A DNA stretch of 64,000 nt from an uncultured delta proteobacterium. Its GTDB lineage: Bacteria; Desulfobacterota; Syntrophorhabdia; Syntrophorhabdales; Syntrophorhabdaceae. Position numbers and translations under genes: made by a program. The notes under the pieces are model-generated. The model saw nothing but the letters and a program-made list of their open reading frames with translations, was not told the origin of the DNA and did not search any database. The stretch spans positions 189,605 to 253,604 of the forward strand of contig CAWFIZ010000008.1 of NCBI GenBank assembly GCA_963816115.1, written 5' to 3'. Positions 3,118-33,595 of this stretch are shown here, one piece after another. Each line of letters begins with the position of its first letter. The first letter of the stretch is position 1.

Positions 3118-3249
3118 TTAATAAACCTTTCCTGCCATTTAGTTCAAAGACATTAGCAAAAAAGATTTTCCCTGTCAAACCCCAAATCGCAGGGCGCAGG
3201 TCGCGCTTGACAAAAACCCAACATGCCGATAACCTTTCCTAAGGTATCC

Positions 3250-4515
3250 ATGAAAAACACCCGGGTAAAAATCCCAATTTTTCTTCTCATATCAGTGTTC
3301 ACTTTTTTGCTTATTGGCAGCTTCGTCCTGCTGTCTCCTGCAAACGCCGCTGAAAGCGGCTGCGTGAAATGCCACACCAGCGAGAATCTGCTCAAGACGC
3401 TCCATAAACCGTCGAAGGTCGTTGTCTCGGAAGGTGAGGGGTGAGCGGGCCCCCCTCCGTCGGTGCCGGCGGAACTGCAGTACAGGATCTTTCTTGTAGA
3501 TAAAAAGCTCATCGATACGGACCCCCATTTCGTTGACGGGTGCGCCTCATGCCACAGGGGTGACGAAAAGGCACCCTCCAGGGACAAGGCGCACAAGGGG
3601 CTCGTGAAAAGGCCGTCGTCAGACCTCACGGTCTGCGAGAGGTGCCATGACAACGTGGCAAAGACATACAAGGATTCCCTCCACTTCACAACTGCAGGCC
3701 TGAAGCACGGGGTATCGGGCAGGTTCTCTGCGAAGGAGCAGAAAATATTCGACGAAAAGGTCTTCCGGCAATCGTGCAGGAGCTGCCACGCGTCATGCGG
3801 CGACTGCCACGTGAGGTCACCCAGGATAGGCGGCATTACCACAGGCTTTATCAAGAACCACCAGTTCGTCGGGAAGGATGATGGGAAAACCTGCTCAGTG
3901 TGCCACGGGGGTCGGGTATACCCTGAATTCACAGGCGACTACGGCGGCGCGGCCGATGTCCACTACCAGAAGGGCATGACCTGCCTCGATTGCCATAAAA
4001 AAACAGAGTTCCACGGCACCGCAACGATCTATAAAACAAAAAAAGATGTAAAGGAAAAGCCGGCCTGCGTGGGCTGTCATAAGAGTGGTGACGAAAAGAC
4101 GGAAAAGGCAAAGACCTCACACGCGCAGCACAAGGACAAAGTGAACTGTTACGCCTGCCACTCCGGGGGTTCGTACAGAAATTGCTATGACTGCCACCTG
4201 GGAAAAGGGGCAACGTCGAAGCCCGGGTTCATTCTCGGTCTGAGCACGAAAGACAAAAAGACCGTCACGACCCTTCGGATCACCCCCACCGTCCGGGACA
4301 CCTTTAAGAGTGCCGGGATCATGATGGAAAAATACGATGCCCTTCCCAATTACTGGGACGCGGCCACGCACAATATCAAAAAAAGGACTGAAAGGACCCG
4401 ATCCTGCGAGATCTGCCACGTCGAAAAGCAGGACTTCCTCACAAGGGAAACGCTCATCAAGAACGGCTCAAAGGCCAATGAAAGCCTGCTCTATAGCCCG
4501 AAACCAATAAAATAA
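3250..4515 (+). CDS. Periplasmic multiheme c-type cytochrome (11 CxxCH motifs) interrupted by one in-frame UGA at 3442-3444; candidate selenoprotein or pseudogene
   Basis: Signal peptide MKNTRVKIPIFLLISVFTFLLIGSFVLLSPANA. Heme motifs: CVKCH, then CASCH, CERCH, CRSCH, CGDCH, CSVCH, CLDCH, CVGCH, CYACH, CYDCH, CEICH. Track ORFs 3223-3444 and 3463-4515 are in the same frame and are separated only by TGA plus 18 nt. Confidence 0.6.
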
Positions 4516-4530
4516 AGAAGGAGGCAATCG

Positions 4531-5427
4531 ATGAAAAGAAGGATATTATACACTGTTGTTCTTGTTCTCCTGGCGTTCCTGGTAGTCCCTTTCACAACCG
4601 TCGCGAGGGACATCAAACCCGTTGTATCCACCGACTGGCTTGCAAAGAACATGGATAATCCGAAGCTTGTCATTCTCGACATCAGGAAGGTAGAGGACTA
4701 CAAGGCCGGGCACATACCTAAGGCCGTCAACATTTTCGTCAATTCACTGGCCGTGATGAAAGGCGGCCTGAGAAACGAAATTCCCCCTCTCGATGACCTT
4801 GCGGACATCATAGGTTCAGCCGGCATAAGTCCCGATTCTCTCGTCGTCGTCGTTGGCGACGCAGACATACTGCCAAACCGTTCCGGCATTACACGGGTCG
4901 CCTGGACCCTCAGATACGCGGGCATCGCCAATGTGGCCGTCCTGAACGGCGGTTACGAAAAGTGGAAGGCGGACAAAAAATCAATTTCAACGGATGTGGT
5001 AAAACCCAAACCGGTGAAGTTCCAGGTCAAGGCCAACGAAGCCATGGTGGCGAAAAAAGACTACGTCATCGGCGCCATCGGCAAAACAACAATCGTAGAT
5101 GCGAGGGATGCCGAGTTTTACGAGGGTAAAAAGAAATTGGATTTTGTCGCCAAAACGGGGAGGATAAAAGGAGCGGTCAACCTCCCCGCCATGGCCGCAT
5201 ACAATAAGGACGGGACATTCAAGAGCAAGAAGGAACTCGCCGACCTGGCTGCAAAAGCGGTCGGCACCGATACCGCAAAAGAGATCATCGTGTACTGCGA
5301 TACGGGGAGATTTGCCACCGTCTGGGCTTATATTCTGGGCGATCTCCTGGGATACAAGAACGTGAAGAGCTATGACGGTTCATCGGAAGAATGGATGAAA
5401 GACCCCAAGGCGCCGACGGAACCGTAA
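4531..5427 (+). CDS. Secreted tandem-rhodanese sulfurtransferase (thiosulfate/3-mercaptopyruvate sulfurtransferase-like)
   Basis: 298 aa with an N-terminal signal peptide and two rhodanese-like halves. Active-site loop CDTGRFA is in the second half. Starts 16 nt after the cytochrome stop, preceded by GAAGGAGG. Confidence 0.8.
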   Translation: MKRRILYTVVLVLLAFLVVPFTTVARDIKPVVSTDWLAKNMDNPKLVILDIRKVEDYKAGHIPKAVNIFVNSLAVMKGGLRNEIPPLDDLADIIGSAGISPDSLVVVVGDADILPNRSGITRVAWTLRYAGIANVAVLNGGYEKWKADKKSISTDVVKPKPVKFQVKANEAMVAKKDYVIGAIGKTTIVDARDAEFYEGKKKLDFVAKTGRIKGAVNLPAMAAYNKDGTFKSKKELADLAAKAVGTDTAKEIIVYCDTGRFATVWAYILGDLLGYKNVKSYDGSSEEWMKDPKAPTEP

Positions 5428-5445
5428 GAAATAGGATTAAGGGAT

Positions 5446-5513
5446 CAGGGCCAAGGGGTCAGAGAAAAGCAAAGGATGGATTGGTTTTGTCTTTCTCTGA
5501 ACCCTTGGCCCTG
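5446..5513. terminator. Long-stem hairpin between convergent genes
   Basis: CAGGGCCAAGGGGTCAGAGAAAG pairs with CTTTCTCTGAACCCTTGGCCCTG (about 22 bp, one mismatch). Loop is about 21 nt. Confidence 0.6.
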
Positions 5514-5522
5514 CCTTTTCTA

Positions 5523-6641
5523 TCACTTTTCTTTCACCGTTATCGTTATCTCCTTCTCCAGCTCCATGTTCCCGAGGAAATGGTGTTTCACGAGGATGCG
5601 GACCTTTGAGGTCCCCGGCTGCTGCGCTCTCAACTCCCGGGTGAGGCGTGTTTCCCCAACAAGCCAGCCTTCCTTGTCAATGATGTGGCTGTATGCGCTT
5701 GCCTTTTTCTGGGGCACGATCGCGTCCCCCTCGACGGTCAGGTCATAGAAAGGGCCGCTCTTGCTTCCTTCCCGGCCGTATTGCAGCACTGCAGTTTCAC
5801 CCACGGTGAGGGCGGCGCCGTCCCCAAGGTAAAAAAAGGTATAGTTCTTCATAATGGAGCTTCCCTCGGAGCCCTTCGCGATGACGGTAAGGGTGTTCCT
5901 GCCTTTTTTCCATGCCGGTTCAAAGGAGCGAAGGGACATGTCGCCGCCGGAGAGCCTGGGGTAGACATCGTTGCCGTTGAAAAGTATCCTCACATCATTG
6001 ATGTTGGCCGTGGCAAGGGTAAGTTTCTCTTTCGCGAAGACCAGTTCCCGTTCACCGGTATGCTGCAGGAGGCTCAAGAACGGTGCCGGTTTCCAGTCAA
6101 GGGTGTCTTTTGCCTCGATCTTTTTTCCGTCAACAACGGTCCTCACCGTTACCGTTTTTTTGCCGGCTTTTCCCGGAACAAAGAGGATGCTCACCATGTT
6201 GCGGTCTGTTGAAAAACCGCCCGAACTGTGGCGCGTCCTGACATGCTTCCCGCCGACCTCAACAGTGAATTTCGGGTCCATCCACGCCTTGGGGAATTCC
6301 AGGCCGACCGAGGCATACACCCTGTCCTTCAGCGCCTCGATCGAAGTGATCCTCAACGCCTGCGGGGGCAGGCACACGTCCTCACAGGCCTGCTTTGTCT
6401 CAAAGGGCACCGCTCCCTGGCACCCGCCCCAGAAGAAAGCCTTGCACTCTTTGCCCTTCCCGTCAAAATAGAACTTTTCGAAAAGCGCCTTGCATGGGCC
6501 AACCTCCGGCTTCATGTCACACTTCAGGAACATAAGGTCCTCGTCGGGTCTGTCTTTTCTTGCCGGCTCGCCGGCATAGGCAGCTGAAAAAAAGAACAGC
6601 ATAAGTAACGAACAGAGGAAAGATCTTTTTAATACGCTCAT
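5523..6641 (-). CDS. Secreted protein with an N-terminal Kunitz/BPTI protease-inhibitor domain and a ~280-aa beta-rich C-terminal region of unknown function
   Basis: Signal peptide, then CDMKPEVGPCKALFEKFYFDGKGKECKAFFWGGCQGAVPFETKQACEDVC. This carries the six-Cys Kunitz spacing and the GPCKA and GGC signatures. The ATG at 6641 has an AAGGGTGG ribosome-binding site; a GTG at 6650 is an alternative start. Confidence 0.75.
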   Translation of the reverse strand: MSVLKRSFLCSLLMLFFFSAAYAGEPARKDRPDEDLMFLKCDMKPEVGPCKALFEKFYFDGKGKECKAFFWGGCQGAVPFETKQACEDVCLPPQALRITSIEALKDRVYASVGLEFPKAWMDPKFTVEVGGKHVRTRHSSGGFSTDRNMVSILFVPGKAGKKTVTVRTVVDGKKIEAKDTLDWKPAPFLSLLQHTGERELVFAKEKLTLATANINDVRILFNGNDVYPRLSGGDMSLRSFEPAWKKGRNTLTVIAKGSEGSSIMKNYTFFYLGDGAALTVGETAVLQYGREGSKSGPFYDLTVEGDAIVPQKKASAYSHIIDKEGWLVGETRLTRELRAQQPGTSKVRILVKHHFLGNMELEKEITITVKEK

Positions 6642-6775
6642 AGTTGCCACCCTTTAAGCCCGATGTGTTTCATGTGCACCCTTTTGAACTCCCGAAAAAG
6701 GAAATAAATGCCGCGCGTAAAGCAATGAGAAGCGTGTGACATGCGAAGTGGGACGTGCGACAGTTTTTTCAAGCC

Positions 6776-11860: not shown

Positions 11861-12757
11861 TAAGTCCTTTTTTAACTCCGCCGGAAAAGCTTTGTGAATG
11901 AGCGTAGCTGCCACCGCTGAATCAAGTAAATTGCTGCCATCATTTGTAAGTATTGGAAGGATATTCACCGGCATAACCGCTGCCAATTCCGACGCTGCGG
12001 CGATGATGGCGGCGCCCAGGGCGGCGGTGATCTGCGGCTCGTCTGGGACGAAGACCATTGTACCCAGTTCGGCCTCGATGGCCTTCACCAGCCCTATGTC
12101 TTTCGCGCCGCCTCCGGTGACGGCGCAGTCAGGGGTGAGGCCGACGCGGGTCACGAGGGTCACGATCTTTGACGCCATGGCGTTATGAATACCTGCGAGG
12201 ATGTCGGCAGGAGAAGCACCTTCGGAGATGCGTGATACCGCCTCCGATTCGGCAAAGACGGCACATCCCGTCGTAAATTCTACGGGTTTCACGGCGGTGA
12301 GGGAGAGTTCGCCGATGTCGCTCACATTCATGCGAAGTATCCTGGCGGCAACCTGGAGGAACTTTCCACTCCCCCCGGCACATTTCTCGTTCATTATGAA
12401 ATTCGCGATCCTTCCGTCATTATCGAGGCGGATCGCCCTCGAGTACTGGGCGCCTATGTCCATGACGGTCCTTACGGAAGGAAAAAGGTGATGAACGCCG
12501 GCGGCGTGGCAGGAGATATCGGTGGAGGTCTGGTCGGCAAGGTCGGACATGTTCCCGCCATAGCCGGCGGCAACGGTGCGGGCTATATCATCCATGGAGA
12601 GGCCCGCCTTTTGAAGCGCCGTTTCGGCAGCGCTCCTTGCCGCCGCACGGTAGTCCCCGCCTGAAGGCAGGACCGCGTAAGACCTTATCTCGTTGCCTTC
12701 AAGCACAACGGCCTTGGAATAACCTGAACCGACATCGATGCCTAACACAAAAGCCAT
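11858..12757 (-). CDS. BcrD/BzdP-like ATPase subunit of an ATP-dependent aryl-CoA reductase (BadF/BadG/BcrA/BcrD ATPase family)
   Basis: 299 aa. N-terminal phosphate-binding motif LGIDVGSGYSKAV. Acetate/sugar-kinase-fold ATPase similar to 2-hydroxyacyl-CoA dehydratase activators. Last gene of the four-gene set. Confidence 0.7.
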   Translation of the reverse strand: MAFVLGIDVGSGYSKAVVLEGNEIRSYAVLPSGGDYRAAARSAAETALQKAGLSMDDIARTVAAGYGGNMSDLADQTSTDISCHAAGVHHLFPSVRTVMDIGAQYSRAIRLDNDGRIANFIMNEKCAGGSGKFLQVAARILRMNVSDIGELSLTAVKPVEFTTGCAVFAESEAVSRISEGASPADILAGIHNAMASKIVTLVTRVGLTPDCAVTGGGAKDIGLVKAIEAELGTMVFVPDEPQITAALGAAIIAAASELAAVMPVNILPILTNDGSNLLDSAVAATLIHKAFPAELKKDL

Positions 12758-13648: not shown

Positions 13649-14980
13649 TTAATTCCCTCTCTTTTTCGATGCATCCAGCGTCTCGATAAAGGCGTCGATC
13701 CTGTTGTGGGTGTCTGCCTCGTTGTAGGAGCTGATATCAACAATATCGCCCTCCATGATCAGGATGGGGATATCCTTATAAACCTTTTTCAGCGTGGCGG
13801 CCTGCTGCATGATACCGGCGTGCCAGCTCCGGCATGAGAAAGCGGAGTGGAAGACCGCGCCGTCACATTTGTAATCCTCGATATATTCAATGATCCTCTC
13901 CACCTTTGGGGTGGAACCGGGGCGTTTCTTTGCCGCGTCATACCAGTGGGTCCAGTACCGCACCCATCTCCAGGCGATATGTTCCAGCGGGTCGTTCGTC
14001 TTCGGCAGGTCGAGGCGATCTATCTTTTCGCAGCCGCGATAGGTCACTTCCACGGGGAAAACGACGCCTTTGCCGTTGAAGTACTGAAAGTCGCCGAGCG
14101 CGAACCATGACGGCAGTCCGGCGGCCCAGATGATCCTGTATTTTTCGGGATCGGCTACGGCCACACCGTCAGCGATCTTCTGTTTCAGCTCAGCGTGGAG
14201 GTCAACGTAAAAATCATAGGCCTCCTGGGTCCCGAGGTTGAAGGTCAGGGGCACCATGGTGTTCATGGCATCGCCCGTGTCCATAGGGGTCGGGATGGCC
14301 TTGCGCAGTTCGTATGTATCGATGAAGAGGTCCCAGGTCTTGTCGGAAAGCGCGACGGTCGCCGCGAGGCGGTCCCAGTCCATCTTCTTGCCGGTTATCT
14401 TCTCGCAGAACTTGACGGTCTCCCTCAGTTCCTCCGTAATATACTTTACGTAGATCTGTTCCTGTTCATGGTGGTTAACGCTGGGATCCCAGGGAGGGTA
14501 GTACATGTTGGTGACGAAAACGGGAACATCCTGCTGATAATGCTGGGTGGCCTGTGGCCACTTGAACCGAGGGTCACAAAGAAGCTGACCGTTGCCGAGC
14601 ATCATGTCCGGCCGTCCCATGCCGCCCCAGGGGGCTCCTTCAGGCGTCGCTCCGCCCAACTCCTCGCGTATCATATCAAAACCGATGTTGCAGGTGGCAT
14701 AGGTACACAAGGACCGTGAAAAGTTGTCCGATTCGGCCTTCTGGAGGTATTTTTCCGCGTCGCGCTTTGCCGCGCAAACCCCTGAGAAACTCTCACCCCA
14801 GGCGGGAACGATGTCCATTGCCCGCATGATCTCATCCTGACCGTCAGCGATAAAGGCGGCGGCCACTTTCTTTCCTTCTTCTTTTGCCTTTAAGGTTGCA
14901 GACAGGTTGCCCCGTACAAATTTCGGTATCTTTGCTGCCGTAGTTGTTGCAACTGCTCTTCCTTTTTTTTCTTCAGCCAT
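13649..14980 (-). CDS. BcrB/BzdO-like subunit (2-hydroxyacyl-CoA dehydratase/benzoyl-CoA reductase B-C family)
   Basis: 443 aa, the length and position expected for the beta subunit in a bcrCBAD/bzdNOPQ arrangement. Conserved Cys residues. Confidence 0.65.
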   Translation of the reverse strand: MAEEKKGRAVATTTAAKIPKFVRGNLSATLKAKEEGKKVAAAFIADGQDEIMRAMDIVPAWGESFSGVCAAKRDAEKYLQKAESDNFSRSLCTYATCNIGFDMIREELGGATPEGAPWGGMGRPDMMLGNGQLLCDPRFKWPQATQHYQQDVPVFVTNMYYPPWDPSVNHHEQEQIYVKYITEELRETVKFCEKITGKKMDWDRLAATVALSDKTWDLFIDTYELRKAIPTPMDTGDAMNTMVPLTFNLGTQEAYDFYVDLHAELKQKIADGVAVADPEKYRIIWAAGLPSWFALGDFQYFNGKGVVFPVEVTYRGCEKIDRLDLPKTNDPLEHIAWRWVRYWTHWYDAAKKRPGSTPKVERIIEYIEDYKCDGAVFHSAFSCRSWHAGIMQQAATLKKVYKDIPILIMEGDIVDISSYNEADTHNRIDAFIETLDASKKRGN

Positions 14981-14998
14981 GTGATTCTCCTCTCTCGG

Positions 14999-16159
14999 TT
15001 ATGCGATCATTTCGAGGAATGCCTCGATCCTGGTCTTCACCCGTGCCAGCGATGATGTGGAATATTCATCCTCCAGGTAGAGAACAGGCGTTCCTGCTGA
15101 CTCGATAAAGCTCTTGATAGCCGGTACTTCAAAGCCGTAGGGGTCGCAATACTTGTAAATGAAGAGAATGGCTCCGTCCACCTTGAACTCATTGATGTAT
15201 TTTTTCATGTGCCCGAAACGCTCTTCCAGGATCCCTTCATAGGTGTCCGCTGAGCCTACGAAGGTCGTTGGGATCTTCAGTTTTCTCAGGTAACGTTCCG
15301 CAATGCCCTGAAGCGGGTCAGTTGTCGCGTCCACATCCTGCCAGTACATCTTGGAACCGATGGAAAGGTCATCCATGACCAGGTACGCTCCGGCTGACTC
15401 GATGGCATCGATAATGGCAACGTCATCGATCTGGTCGCCTATTATCATAATGCGTTTGGCTTTCCCGTTCGATGCCGGTTTTCTCTGTTTTATCTCTTTT
15501 GTAACGGCCTGGATCAGGGCGCTCGATTCCTCTACCGGGAGGCTCATGGATGCAACGAGGACCTTCATCATCTCTGCGCCGGATATCATGGGGGGGTTGG
15601 ACTTTCTGAGATCGTAAAGCTCTCTCATGAGCTTTCTGTTCTCGTTGTGGGCCTTCACCGCTCCGGCTATCGCCTCATCGGTGATCTTCTTGCCCGTGAA
15701 TTTCTCGAGGGTATTGACAAAGATGCGCAGGATCTCTTTCGTAAAAGTTATCGAGGGATCACCCGTCACGTGTGGAATGTTGAGGAAGTGCCAGTAAGGG
15801 AGCTTCAGCGTGTAGCTCCAGGTCTCATTTGTGCGGTCGATAGAGTCACACTGGTGGGGAAGCACCATACCGTCCAGAAAATCATATTTTCCTTTGACCG
15901 CCGCGTCGAACACATTACGAACAAAGGGGCACACAATACTTTCCATGTACGCGTCGCCCTTGCTGATCGCCTCGGAAACATTGCCCTTCAACCTGATCGG
16001 GAGAACCCCGGCAGCCGTCATGATCTCAACCGGACCAAGCGCAGACAGGTACCCGATGACCTTTTTGCCCGTAGCCTTCAGTTCTCTCGCCCTTGACCCG
16101 TACTGGGTGTAGAGCTTTTCGGCGGTTGCCAAACCATTGCCGTCTCGTATGTCTGTCAT
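14999..16159 (-). CDS. BcrC/BzdN-like subunit (2-hydroxyacyl-CoA dehydratase/benzoyl-CoA reductase family)
   Basis: 386 aa. First gene of the operon. GGAG-type ribosome-binding site (ataaGGAGttaag) before the ATG. Confidence 0.65.
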   Translation of the reverse strand: MTDIRDGNGLATAEKLYTQYGSRARELKATGKKVIGYLSALGPVEIMTAAGVLPIRLKGNVSEAISKGDAYMESIVCPFVRNVFDAAVKGKYDFLDGMVLPHQCDSIDRTNETWSYTLKLPYWHFLNIPHVTGDPSITFTKEILRIFVNTLEKFTGKKITDEAIAGAVKAHNENRKLMRELYDLRKSNPPMISGAEMMKVLVASMSLPVEESSALIQAVTKEIKQRKPASNGKAKRIMIIGDQIDDVAIIDAIESAGAYLVMDDLSIGSKMYWQDVDATTDPLQGIAERYLRKLKIPTTFVGSADTYEGILEERFGHMKKYINEFKVDGAILFIYKYCDPYGFEVPAIKSFIESAGTPVLYLEDEYSTSSLARVKTRIEAFLEMIA

Positions 16160-31029: not shown

Positions 31030-31983
31030 TCAGGTTATGGAGCCCACTCAGGTAGAACCGCGGGCGGCGGTGCAGCCATAGCAATGTTCGCCGGTCATGA
31101 TCTTTCTTTGCGACAGCGCGGACAGGTCAAAATCCCCTATATACTGCGGACAATCACGATGAACGGCAAGGTTGCTGATCTGGTTGAAATCGCAATCGTA
31201 GAGCCTCCCGTCCCAACCGACATTGATGCCGTGACGGCACATGAGCCCGGCAAGTGTGTCTTTATTCAGGGAATCCTTGAGGAGCGCCATGTAAAGCCCG
31301 AGATTGCCCGATCTTTCGAGAAAATTACGGAACCTTCCAAGGGGCATGTTCGTGAGCGCATACAGATTGTCAAAAACAATGCCGTGTTTTTCAAAAAGGA
31401 CCTTTTTATAAGCCGCTTCAAGTGTTGTCTGTTCGGGTGGCATGTCCACACCCTGCGGGTTATACATGATATTCAGGACCAGCCCCGTCGATCCATGGCC
31501 ATAGCCCAACCTGTTCAGCATACCGAGGGCCTCGATGCTTTTTTCAAAGACCCCGGGGCCTCGCACCCTGTTCACGTCCTCTTGAAGATAGTACGGCAAT
31601 GACGCGATAAGTGCGACGCCGTTATCCTTATAGAATTCGGGCAAGCCTTCCATCCCGTCCTCGAAGAAAACCGTCAGGTTTGTCCTCACGATCACCGGGC
31701 AACCAAATCCTTTTGCCCTTGAAACGAGATACCTGAAATACGGATTGAGTTCGGGCGCCCCACCGGTTACATCGAGGATGACGGCGGGGTTCTCTTCCAG
31801 GACCTTCAGAAGATGGTCGACACTCTCCCCGCCCATCTGTTCTTTCCTGCCCGGGCCCGCGTCCACATGGCAGTGCGCGCAGGCCATGTTGCAGGCAAAT
31901 CCCAGGTTCACCTGTATCGTTTTGATACCGGCTGCCTTCAGTCCTTCGGATTGTATCTGCTGTATGGCGGCGGCAAAGCTCAT
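31030..31983 (-). CDS. Radical SAM/Cys-rich 'selenodomain' protein (ArsS family), with probable Sec at UGA 31048-31050
   Basis: CNMACAHC radical SAM cluster motif. C-terminal HCYGCTAARGST-UGA-VGSIT-stop. The track ORF stops at the first TGA (31048). The next stop is the TGA at 31030-31032. Confidence 0.7.
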
Positions 31984-32083
31984 AATATGGAGTAATTATA
32001 ATACGTTTTGTCAATATTGCAAAGAGGCCTCACACGGTTATTGCATCAAAGGGGAATGTCGGATAGAATGGTATCTCTCCCTT

Positions 32084-33595
32084 ATGGACACAACACCTGC
32101 CATCTCCGTAATCATCCCCGTGCTCAATGAAGAAGGCGCAATTAATGACGTAATAGACCGCATTTTTAAAGAAAACAGCGGGAGCGGCTTCGAGGTCATC
32201 GTCGTGGATGGAGACGCCGGCGGGAGCACGGTTTCCCGTATAGAACGTAAAGACGTGGCCACACTTGTCGCCCCTTGCGGGCGAGGCCCGCAGATGAACG
32301 CGGGGGCGGCGGCGGCATGCGGCAACATCCTGCTTTTCCTCCACGCCGACACAATTCTGCCGTCTCGCGGCCTCGGTGAGATCGAGGCGATCATGAAAGA
32401 TCAACGGTTCGTAGGCGGCTCCTTTGACCTAGGTATCGCTTCGCGGCGATGCATCTTCCGGCTCATCGAAAAGGTTGCATCCCTGAGGTCTCGCATCACG
32501 AGGGTACCTTTTGGCGATCAGGCGATCTTCATTAGAAGAGACCATTTCAAGGAAATAGGCGGTTACCGCAAGATACCGATCATGGAGGATGTTGAGCTCA
32601 TGCGAAGGATCAGGAAAGATGGCGGCAGGATCTTTATAATCCCGCGAAAGGTTGTCACCTCGGCCCGAAGATGGGAACAGGAAGGGGCCCTTTATTGCAC
32701 GCTGAGAAACTGGTTCGTTCTCATTCTTTATCTTTTGAAGGTACCGCCGGAGAAGCTTGTCCGGTATTATCAGGGATGCCGGGCAAATAGTTCACTACTG
32801 CATTATATTTTATCATTCCGCACCGGGGATCGGAGGTGCTCTAAACTTGACCGCAGGTTTACGGGGTTTGACGTGACAAGAAACGACAGGTGCCTGATCA
32901 TGCTGGTTAAATATCCCGAAAAGGGTAAAGTGAAATCGCGCCTGGCGGGATCGATCGGTGAAAAGCACGCCCTGGCCCTGTACCGTTCTTTTGTCGAAGA
33001 TATCCTTAGCGTTCATGGACGCGGTTGCTACCAGACAGTGATCGCATATGACCCTCCGGGATCGCAAGCAAAGGTCGAAGGATGGCTCGGCAGCGAATGG
33101 ACGCTCGCAGAGCAATCACGGGGCAACCTTGGAGAAAGGATAGAGAACGCTTTTTTGGAGGCCTTTGCGCGGGACCATAGATATGCCGTCGTTGTCGCGA
33201 GCGACAACCCCGACCTCCCGGCTTCCTTTATCGATAAGGCATTTGATGCTGTAGAACGTGACGGCTCGGCCATAGGGCCGACGCGGGACGGGGGATTCTA
33301 TCTTCTTGGATTCAGAAAAGACAGGTTCTCGAAGGGTGTCCTGGATGGCATCCCGTGGAGCTCCGAGAGGGCGTGTGCGGCAGCATTAGAGAACATGAGG
33401 CAACGGGGCTGCCAGACCGTCATTCTCGACGAATGGTACGATATCGACACCATTGAAGACCTGCTTGCATACTATAAGCGCCAAGCTGCAGCAAACAAGG
33501 GTGATTCTCTGACCTATGCCTATCTTTCCGGCCAATGGGAGGCCATCCTGAAACAACACGGGCCGGAACATTCTGATAAGGAGAACAAACCGTGA
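32084..33595 (+). CDS. Fusion of a GT2-type glycosyltransferase (rSAM/selenodomain-associated transferase 2-like) and a DUF2064/CofC-like transferase (transferase 1-like)
   Basis: N-terminal half: ISVIIPVLNEEG...FLHADT...FGDQAIF...MEDVEL. C-terminal half: LIMLVKYPEKGKVKSRL...DNPDLP...GPTRDGGFYLLG. There is no stop between the halves. They are joined by a ~40-aa low-complexity linker. Confidence 0.7.
   Translation: MDTTPAISVIIPVLNEEGAINDVIDRIFKENSGSGFEVIVVDGDAGGSTVSRIERKDVATLVAPCGRGPQMNAGAAAACGNILLFLHADTILPSRGLGEIEAIMKDQRFVGGSFDLGIASRRCIFRLIEKVASLRSRITRVPFGDQAIFIRRDHFKEIGGYRKIPIMEDVELMRRIRKDGGRIFIIPRKVVTSARRWEQEGALYCTLRNWFVLILYLLKVPPEKLVRYYQGCRANSSLLHYILSFRTGDRRCSKLDRRFTGFDVTRNDRCLIMLVKYPEKGKVKSRLAGSIGEKHALALYRSFVEDILSVHGRGCYQTVIAYDPPGSQAKVEGWLGSEWTLAEQSRGNLGERIENAFLEAFARDHRYAVVVASDNPDLPASFIDKAFDAVERDGSAIGPTRDGGFYLLGFRKDRFSKGVLDGIPWSSERACAAALENMRQRGCQTVILDEWYDIDTIEDLLAYYKRQAAANKGDSLTYAYLSGQWEAILKQHGPEHSDKENKP

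Follow-up and report, generated by a model that had tools for sequence, protein, structure and literature searches.

A multiheme cytochrome gene interrupted by UGA

The DNA analysed here is a stretch of 64,000 nucleotides from an uncultured member of the Syntrophorhabdaceae (contig CAWFIZ010000008.1, assembly GCA_963816115.1), referred to as the window, and near its beginning lies a gene for a c-type multiheme cytochrome whose reading frame is broken by one in-frame UGA and which is followed directly by a gene for a rhodanese. An earlier reading of this DNA, hereafter the original prediction, had proposed that the UGA encodes selenocysteine (Sec). From the comparisons reported below, positions 3250 (or 3223) to 4515 very probably form a single gene for an exported 11-heme cytochrome in which the apparent stop encodes Sec. 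The parts of the gene, in positions of the window, are as follows.

3250..4515, plus strand: Sec-containing 11-heme c-type cytochrome as one coding sequence, 421 residues including U65, the frame being open except for the TGA at 3442-3444
3250..3348, plus strand: predicted signal peptide of the Sec (secretory) type, MKNTRVKIPIFLLISVFTFLLIGSFVLLSPANA, read from the sequence, with the cleavage site inferred to lie before AE
3361..3375, plus strand: heme-binding motif 1, CVKCH, 5' of the UGA and invariant across 65 read-through homologs
3442..3444, plus strand: in-frame UGA, read as Sec (U65, counted from the ATG at 3250), in the motif G-U-[A/G]-G-x-x-P
3456..3473, plus strand: hairpin resembling a selenocysteine insertion sequence (SECIS), with a 7-bp stem UCCGUCG/CGGCGGA and a GUGC loop, starting 11 nt after the UGA
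3541..4419, plus strand: heme motifs 2-11 (CASCH, CERCH, CRSCH, CGDCH, CSVCH, CLDCH, CVGCH, CYACH, CYDCH, CEICH)

The architecture given in the original prediction stands in most respects. The open reading frame (ORF) at 3223-3444 carries a signal peptide and CVKCH and ends with the TGA at 3442-3444, and a single frame runs on through AGPPPS into the ORF at 3463-4515 with its ten CxxCH motifs, for a total of 11 motifs, one 5' and ten 3' of the UGA. The start at 3223 from which it had counted is an in-frame ATG, and the frame from there to 4515 is open bar the one TGA, but the likelier start codon is the ATG at 3250 (MKNTRVK…), with AAGG at 3241-3244 before it. In the read-through product (…SEGEG-U-AGPPPSVPAELQYR) U65 lies 23 residues past the first heme motif, in a glycine-rich loop G-U-A-G-x-x-P. 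Matches above the Pfam cutoffs to Cytochrome_C7, c3_2, MtrC/MtrF II-IV and c554 identify the protein as a c-type multiheme cytochrome. The closest relative of the locus is found in Syntrophorhabdus sp. PtaB.Bin047 (75% identity), and related loci keep a hydrophobic N-terminus followed by CxxCH 5' of the TGA. A scan for sigma-70 promoters found no site 5' of the cytochrome gene.

Conservation of the UGA column

When protein databases were searched with the joined sequence, 501 homologs came back, and about 90% of the best 120 are entries of 340-351 aa that start right after the UGA column, the pattern expected when gene callers halt at a conserved TGA. At the DNA level, 80 related loci were taken from a one-genome-per-species collection and translated in frame 5' of each match. 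A stop occupies exactly the aligned column in 51 of these loci, and it is TGA in all 51 and TAA or TAG in none. The frame 5' of it, with a signal peptide and C-x-x-C-H-T…(~25 aa)…G-E-G, is intact in 50 of the 51, the exception (L003) having a 5' frame that is broken by stops. On the Desulfobacterota side the TGA loci come from Syntrophorhabdaceae, Syntrophaceae/Smithella and a cultivated carrier, Geobacter sp. OR-1; others belong to Spirochaetota/Treponema, Bacillota/Gudongella, Anaerolineae and other Chloroflexota, and further ones to Nitrospinota, Rokubacteria, Tectomicrobia, Fidelibacterota and Caldithrix abyssi.

A Cys codon (TGC or TGT) stands at the same column in 19 of the 80 loci, within the motif GGCGGETPH. 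These Cys-type loci come mainly from Ignavibacteriota and Bacteroidota, and also from Melioribacter, Kapabacteria and Acetothermia, and their branch is a large one, with 918 database matches, all without a name. Across 65 aligned read-through proteins the column is Sec or Cys in 100%, in the motif G-[U/C]-[G/A]-G-x-x-P. A conserved TGA combined with Cys homologs is the standard signature of a selenoprotein. The alignment of orthologs had been set beforehand as a test of the original prediction, and its outcome, together with the position-specific hairpin described below, strongly supports the Sec reading; on these comparative grounds we think it highly likely that UGA 3442-3444 is a conserved recoding site and that the gene is a genuine selenoprotein gene.

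The window taken by itself, with a stop between two ORFs and a local fold no better than that of shuffled sequence, would also suit a pseudogene, a nonsense mutation confined to this strain, or a fault in the assembly, in which case the 10-heme ORF would be dead or its product never exported. Such decay is at odds with a TGA column shared by 51 genomes of many phyla, in which neither TAA nor TAG appears and both flanks are under evident purifying selection, as well as with Cys at the column in another clade and a position-specific, covarying hairpin 3' of it. These comparative data effectively refute the explanation, and we leave it almost no probability.

Individual loci depart from the common plan. 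In L017 and L018 (Syntrophaceae/Smithella), about 360 nt 5' of the TGA (4974), the frame stays open before heme motif 1, and extra CxxCH motifs (…DCKECH…CFGCH…CNGCH…) replace the signal peptide, so that the Sec cytochrome seems to be fused to an additional N-terminal c7-like module. Around 4960-5000 in L059 (Anaerolineales) the Sec column holds TGG (Trp; GEGWGGEVAPLEPWEK), and around 4960-5000 in L039 (Anaerolineae) the motif is gone altogether (…PFLWPRLRTAPWLMEPWERVW), suggestive of a frameshift or of local decay.

A SECIS-like hairpin 3' of the UGA

The hairpin of the original prediction is present, with its GUGC loop, and spans 3456-3473, starting 11 nt past the UGA. On its own, the 65-nt region examined folds no better than shuffled sequence (z=-1.0), and the hairpin gains significance only by comparison with other loci. 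Most Sec-type loci (those with TGA at the column) have a hairpin of 6-11 bp that starts 10-11 nt after the UGA, with apical loops that are mostly GGUC.., GGU or GUU. The stem sequences vary by clade, in step with the encoded peptides (5' arm / 3' arm):

Window's clade: CUCCGCC / GGCGGAG
Chloroflexota: GUGGCUCC / GGAGCCAU
Nitrospinota and Tectomicrobia: UCCCCC / GGGGGA
Gudongella: CACAGU / ACUGUG
Sphaerochaetaceae: GCACCGGA / UUCGGUGC

No hairpin of this kind follows the codon in Cys-type loci. The median hairpin energy is -10.9 kcal/mol in Sec-type and 0 in Cys-type loci (p=2e-9), a contrast that is inflated by the GC content of the two groups (0.63 vs 0.45) and a p-value that, like any from these loci, overstates independence because the loci are phylogenetically related. 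A control within each gene was added because of this difference in GC: the 36 nt after the UGA are more stable than the median segment of the same gene in 52 of 52 Sec-type genes, at a median percentile of 6%, a value also found for the window's own gene.

Changes in the stem are compensatory in the Chloroflexota clade, where both sides have changed in five of eight stem pairs and 90.6% of cells are paired, compared with 36-54% in controls whose partner was shifted by 1-3 columns. None of 500 shuffles reaches the observed covariation, and some of the changes swap Ala and Pro codons on both arms together. Covariation was counted within clades because an alignment of the post-UGA region over all clades (MAFFT) placed the stems out of register. 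Whether a SECIS element lies here had been posed as a question for the original prediction; most Sec-type loci, but no Cys-type locus, have a hairpin with the canonical spacing and with compensatory changes, which answers it in the affirmative, and the hairpin at 3456-3473 behaves like a putative bacterial SECIS element. The fdhF SECIS of E. coli has a spacing of about 11 nt and a G/U loop. The hairpins described here resemble this type in lying about 11 nt past the UGA and in having loops with G and U (GGUC, GGU, GUU, GUGC), and differ from it in their short stems (6-11 bp); the copy in the window shows no evident bulged U. Rfam gave no match in the 64-kb window.

Homologs with other residues at the Sec column

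In nine full-length homologs from the database the Sec column is occupied by R, S, Y, A, W or P. The W of P0096 (L082, 162-1385) is spurious and stems from translation of the contig under a code in which TGA means Trp: the codon in the DNA is TGA, and the contig does not give the entry under translation table 11. The W of P0104 is probably the same miscall. True sense codons are CGA (P0031), TCA (P0061), TAC (P0073) and CCC (P0112), and the sense-codon homologs share 50-58% identity with the window's protein. A single substitution separates CGA, and likewise TCA, from TGA, and both of these loci retain most of the hairpin.

At least four of these homologs (P0031, P0061, P0073 and P0091) are encoded in a three-gene operon composed of the cytochrome, a second multiheme cytochrome of 655-683 aa and a rhodanese, while P0112 has the two-gene arrangement. 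The three-gene loci (L081 6001-7257, L083 2501-3751, L085 2501-3739 and the contig of P0091) have CGA (R), TCA (S) or TAC (Y) at the column. This group looks like a paralogous branch that lost Sec by a single-base change, and the extra cytochrome may have taken over its catalytic role. We considered the non-Cys homologs as a refutation of Sec and rejected them as such, since some are a TGA miscalled as W and the others belong to the sense-codon group, in which four have the three-gene operon.

The same homologs bear on the proposal that the UGA is read through without Sec, by near-cognate insertion of Trp, Cys or Arg, or is a leaky stop that yields a mono-heme protein and a minor full-length form. 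The W shown in P0096 and P0104 would fit such read-through, and R (CGA), S (TCA) and W (TGG, in L059) at the column indicate that other residues are tolerated. The W of P0096, however, is a TGA miscalled under another genetic code, and Cys is the only sense codon that has been kept over a whole clade (19 loci). Nor does near-cognate read-through account for a hairpin with the spacing and G/U loop of a bacterial SECIS that is missing from the Cys forms, or for the occurrence in the same organism of ArsS, a known selenoprotein family, with a similar hairpin. We consider read-through without Sec very improbable.

Probable selenocysteine decoding in the host

31030..31983, minus strand: ArsS radical S-adenosylmethionine (SAM) (seleno)protein gene (TIGR04167), with an in-frame UGA at 31050-31048 and an ORF at 31983-31051

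The second UGA to which the original prediction had pointed (31050-31048, minus strand) is real, and TIGR04167 places it in an ArsS gene. The ORF scores 391 bits against this model (arsenosugar biosynthesis radical SAM (seleno)protein ArsS; cutoff 300), its C-terminus reads …CTAARGST-UGA-VGSIT-TAA, and an 8-bp hairpin with a GGUC loop lies 3' of the UGA. The ArsS family (GxxU) is listed among known selenoproteins (PMC13188914). On the basis of this gene, with its own UGA and hairpin, the host organism very likely decodes Sec. A scan of the whole window for in-frame TGA codons that join two open segments gave 96 candidates, which are almost all noise in GC-rich sequence; one such pair, at 11898-12491, was rejected as a further selenoprotein and looks non-coding. 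The divergent neighbour of arsS (31745-33595, plus strand) encodes a GT2 plus DUF2064 protein, and a transferase of this GT2/DUF2064 type is a companion of the ArsS radical SAM family.

The rhodanese partner

4531..5427, plus strand: periplasmic tandem-domain rhodanese, 298 aa, with a signal peptide (PF00581, two domains, E=1e-35)
5296..5298, plus strand: codon of the sole rhodanese Cys, C256, in the C-terminal-domain loop CDTGRFA

A periplasmic tandem rhodanese does lie directly downstream of the cytochrome gene, as originally noted, with PF00581 matched twice. It starts 15 nt past the cytochrome stop, with GGAGG at 4520-4524, and the two genes are probably co-transcribed. In view of the usual form of rhodanese active-site loops, we take C256 to be the catalytic Cys. 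The score against the equivalog model for 3-mercaptopyruvate sulfurtransferase (110 bits) is below its cutoff of 250, and no specific enzyme is assigned.

The linkage extends well beyond this locus. Pfam identifies a rhodanese in 54 of the 63 first downstream ORFs that were scanned, and several of the nine others are mis-picked ORFs. When the neighbours of 75 loci were clustered all against all, the cytochrome was found in 63, the rhodanese in 59 and the next family in 10; the rhodanese is thus the only widely conserved neighbour, and it is linked to the cytochrome in the Sec-type and Cys-type clades alike. In three mutually distant database proteins (P0081, P0269, P0297) the cytochrome is followed by two rhodanese domains in one polypeptide, and these apparent fusions are Rosetta-stone evidence for what would be a physical partnership.

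Other neighbours are more sporadic. In Gram-positive loci of Gudongella/Bacillota (L032, L033, L037, L073) a ResB-like gene of cytochrome c maturation lies downstream, not a rhodanese. At about 6-10 loci the upstream ORFs read, from their sequence, as an NrfC/NrfD-like quinol-dehydrogenase pair; in the window, NrfC/NrfD-like genes are not adjacent to the cytochrome.

Heme ligands and structure model

All 11 heme motifs are kept in both Sec and Cys forms, the last of them as CxxxCH in the Cys forms. Set against these 11 motifs, the alignment of 65 sequences has nine conserved His outside the motifs, and among its non-motif positions no conserved Cys, Met or Lys besides the Sec/Cys. With nine His for 11 hemes, at least one heme, and probably two, would have no conserved distal His, a trait that we take as typical of catalytic, rather than purely electron-carrying, multiheme proteins. 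An AlphaFold model of P0031, the closest full-length homolog, had a predicted local distance difference test score (pLDDT) of 74.8 and a predicted template modelling score (pTM) of 0.70. Foldseek found no match to this model in the PDB at E<=0.001, and a PDB sequence search gave generic heme-motif matches only, the best (E=9e-5) being a cytochrome c552.

Because there are nine distal-His candidates for 11 hemes and the Sec/Cys is the sole other conserved ligand, one may imagine that Sec (Cys in the Cys forms) is the distal axial ligand of one heme, which would make this a natural His/selenolate-ligated catalytic c-type heme loaded with sulfur or selenium by the rhodanese. We regard this as unlikely. 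To our knowledge no natural Sec-ligated heme has been described.

Comparison with known systems

According to the original prediction no Sec-containing multiheme cytochrome had been described, a statement that is now outdated by MccSep/ExtKL (PMC13510729) and by two more such proteins (PMC13188914). MccSep of Geobacter sulfurreducens (GSU2937-2936, ExtKL), reported in 2026, is a periplasmic five-heme selenoenzyme that reduces polysulfide and, less well, selenite, and that is essential for sulfur respiration; its U325 adjoins a His/Cys-ligated heme, and its family (NF040886) has five conserved CxxCH motifs, a conserved heme-ligating Cys and a C-terminal Ig-like domain that bears the Sec (PMC13510729). 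Going by NCBIfam names, the MccSep cluster also encodes a rhodanese-like protein, ExtH.

Each of the two families has a periplasmic c-type multiheme cytochrome gene that an in-frame UGA breaks in two, with a SECIS-like hairpin after the UGA, pairs of Sec and Cys homologs, a Gly/Pro loop around the Sec (DGUP in MccSep, GUAG..P in the 11-heme family) and a rhodanese-like gene alongside (ExtH in the case of MccSep), and each occurs mainly in Desulfobacterota and other anaerobes. They differ in that the 11-heme family has 11 rather than five hemes, carries its Sec close to the N-terminus, at residue 65 of 421, and not in an Ig-like domain at the C-terminus, lacks a second conserved Cys that could serve as a His/Cys heme ligand, and has its rhodanese directly downstream and at times fused. 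No sequence homology between the two was detected: NF040886 was not among the NCBIfam matches of the window's protein at E<=0.01, and no MccSep-like chain was among its PDB sequence matches at E<=1.

The two further proteins are the octaheme cytochrome of the tetrathionate-reductase family (TIGR04315), in a Sec form, and a CXXCH protein of the GSU2204 family (NF041027) (PMC13188914). They are likewise Sec-bearing c-type heme proteins of anaerobic respiratory bacteria, with a heme count and a Sec-flanking motif unlike those of the 11-heme family, and neither model matches the window's protein at E<=0.01 in NCBIfam. The best NCBIfam cytochrome matches are ExtM (39.7 bits, cutoff 800), ExtO (32.5 bits, cutoff 200) and ExtN (31.4 bits, cutoff 200), and the rhodanese scores 61.4 bits against ExtH (cutoff 200); at such scores the resemblance is apparently only that of generic heme motifs or of rhodaneses. 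A literature search found no description of the 11-heme family. Because there is no model match, 11 rather than five hemes, an N-terminal Sec and no extra Cys, we regard the 11-heme cytochromes as a selenoprotein family separate from MccSep but built on the same principle.

Sec-free systems offer parallels for the chemistry. TsdA and SoxXA are His/Cys-ligated heme enzymes of sulfur metabolism. They too are periplasmic c-type cytochromes, with a single chalcogen residue at a heme for thiosulfate or sulfane-sulfur chemistry, and the 11-heme family has as counterpart its Sec/Cys, the sole conserved non-motif chalcogen, in a protein whose His ligands are two short. They differ in having two hemes rather than 11 and show no sequence match, and Sec ligation in the 11-heme family is hypothetical. 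In Wolinella succinogenes, Sud is a periplasmic rhodanese-like carrier of polysulfide sulfur that feeds the polysulfide reductase Psr. The common element is a periplasmic sulfur carrier of rhodanese type working with a respiratory reductase; Psr, by contrast, is a molybdopterin enzyme without Sec and not a cytochrome, and the catalytic subunits are not homologous.

A proposed mechanism

The explanation that best accounts for the whole is, very likely, a Sec-decoded, exported 11-heme cytochrome in one unit with a rhodanese, a pair that would serve sulfur or selenium redox chemistry. Recoding of UGA 3442-3444 by a SelB-type mechanism, through the hairpin at 3456-3473, would yield an exported 11-heme protein with its Sec in a flexible Gly-rich loop. 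Polysulfide, thiosulfate or a similar donor may supply the rhodanese with sulfane sulfur or selenium, which it would carry as a persulfide or perselenide on C256; the S or Se atom may then be transferred to U65 in its selenolate form. The Se-S (or Se-Se) adduct could be reduced to sulfide by electrons that arrive along the heme chain, or the reaction could run in reverse as an oxidation. The pair would in this way be a polysulfide, thiosulfate or selenium redox enzyme, comparable to MccSep/ExtKL with ExtH, or to Sud-Psr, without being homologous to them. Comparative support exists for the recoding, the Cys homologs, the covarying hairpin and the rhodanese linkage; the atom-transfer and redox steps form a candidate scheme.

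Several observations weigh against this interpretation or parts of it. None of selA, selB, selC and selD was found in the 64-kb window with ARAGORN, Rfam and ORF scans, ARAGORN reporting neither a tRNA nor a tRNA-Sec there. The stem of the window's own clade, though 93.5% paired, is almost invariant, with covariation at one pair, and adds little independent evidence for that reason; the hairpin in this clade also overlaps conserved codons (PPPVxAE). The residue at the Sec column is not indispensable for folding, since paralogs carry R, S, Y or P. In the P0031 model pLDDT falls below 50 in the Sec loop (residues 53-67), and the geometry of Sec and heme is not inferable from it. The substrate and the direction of the reaction are inferred entirely.

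Sulfane sulfur is the substrate that we favour, with a likelihood somewhat short of even, the remainder being shared by selenium, tellurium, arsenic and others. The cytochrome could be a Sec protein that does not act on sulfane sulfur, serving as an electron wire or as a reductase of selenite, tellurite, arsenic, thioarsenic or metals, with the rhodanese as a selenium carrier or detoxifier. The weak best NCBIfam matches point that way, as ExtM, ExtN, ExtO and ExtH belong to the ext operon of selenite and tellurite reduction, and so do the reduction of selenite by MccSep itself and the MtrC/MtrF-like heme domains found by Pfam. Geobacter sp. OR-1, a carrier of the gene, respires arsenate. Every score against an ext family is, however, far below its cutoff (e.g. 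39.7 vs 800 bits), a pure wire would have no need of a conserved Sec/Cys served by its own SECIS, or of two hemes that lack a conserved distal His, and the linkage and fusion with a rhodanese over phyla point to the transfer of an S or Se atom. We give a role apart from sulfane sulfur a modest probability, well short of even.

Wider significance

The 11-heme cytochromes look like a second, unrelated and widespread family of Sec multiheme proteins on the plan of MccSep, with a heme chain, one Sec and a rhodanese. It was not until 2026 that Sec-dependent multiheme cytochromes were recognised as enzymes, when MccSep proved to be the sulfur reductase long sought in Geobacter (PMC13510729). The family ranges over syntrophs, spirochaetes, Chloroflexota, clostridia, Nitrospinota and Caldithrix, with Cys forms in Ignavibacteriota and Bacteroidota. 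Most of its database entries are 5'-truncated, without a signal peptide, and named 'cytochrome c3 family' or 'hypothetical', and this mis-annotation hides an exported redox enzyme from the metabolic reconstruction of these anaerobes. JGI labels many of these cytochromes 'thiosulfate/3-mercaptopyruvate sulfurtransferase', a name apparently carried over from the neighbouring or fused rhodanese. If the family does turn over polysulfide, thiosulfate or selenium, sulfur or selenium respiration would extend to many unsuspected lineages, and studies of Sec-heme chemistry would gain an independent case of convergent chemistry.

Surrounding genes

5431..5523, no strand: long inverted repeat between the convergent genes for the rhodanese and a Kunitz-domain protein, with a minimum free energy of -49.8 kcal/mol (5429-5525)

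This inverted repeat is probably a bidirectional terminator that closes the two-gene unit. The gene beyond it (5523-6650, minus strand) encodes a secreted protein of 375 aa with a Kunitz/BPTI domain (PF00014, E=3e-12, residues 44-93), a domain that is uncommon in bacteria; the protein has no match in NCBIfam. Further along, at 13649-16159 (minus strand), two adjacent genes resemble, below the cutoffs, subunits of benzoyl-CoA reductase (bzd-type N/O) or of a double-cubane-cluster reductase, which fits an aromatic-degrading host like the Syntrophorhabdaceae.

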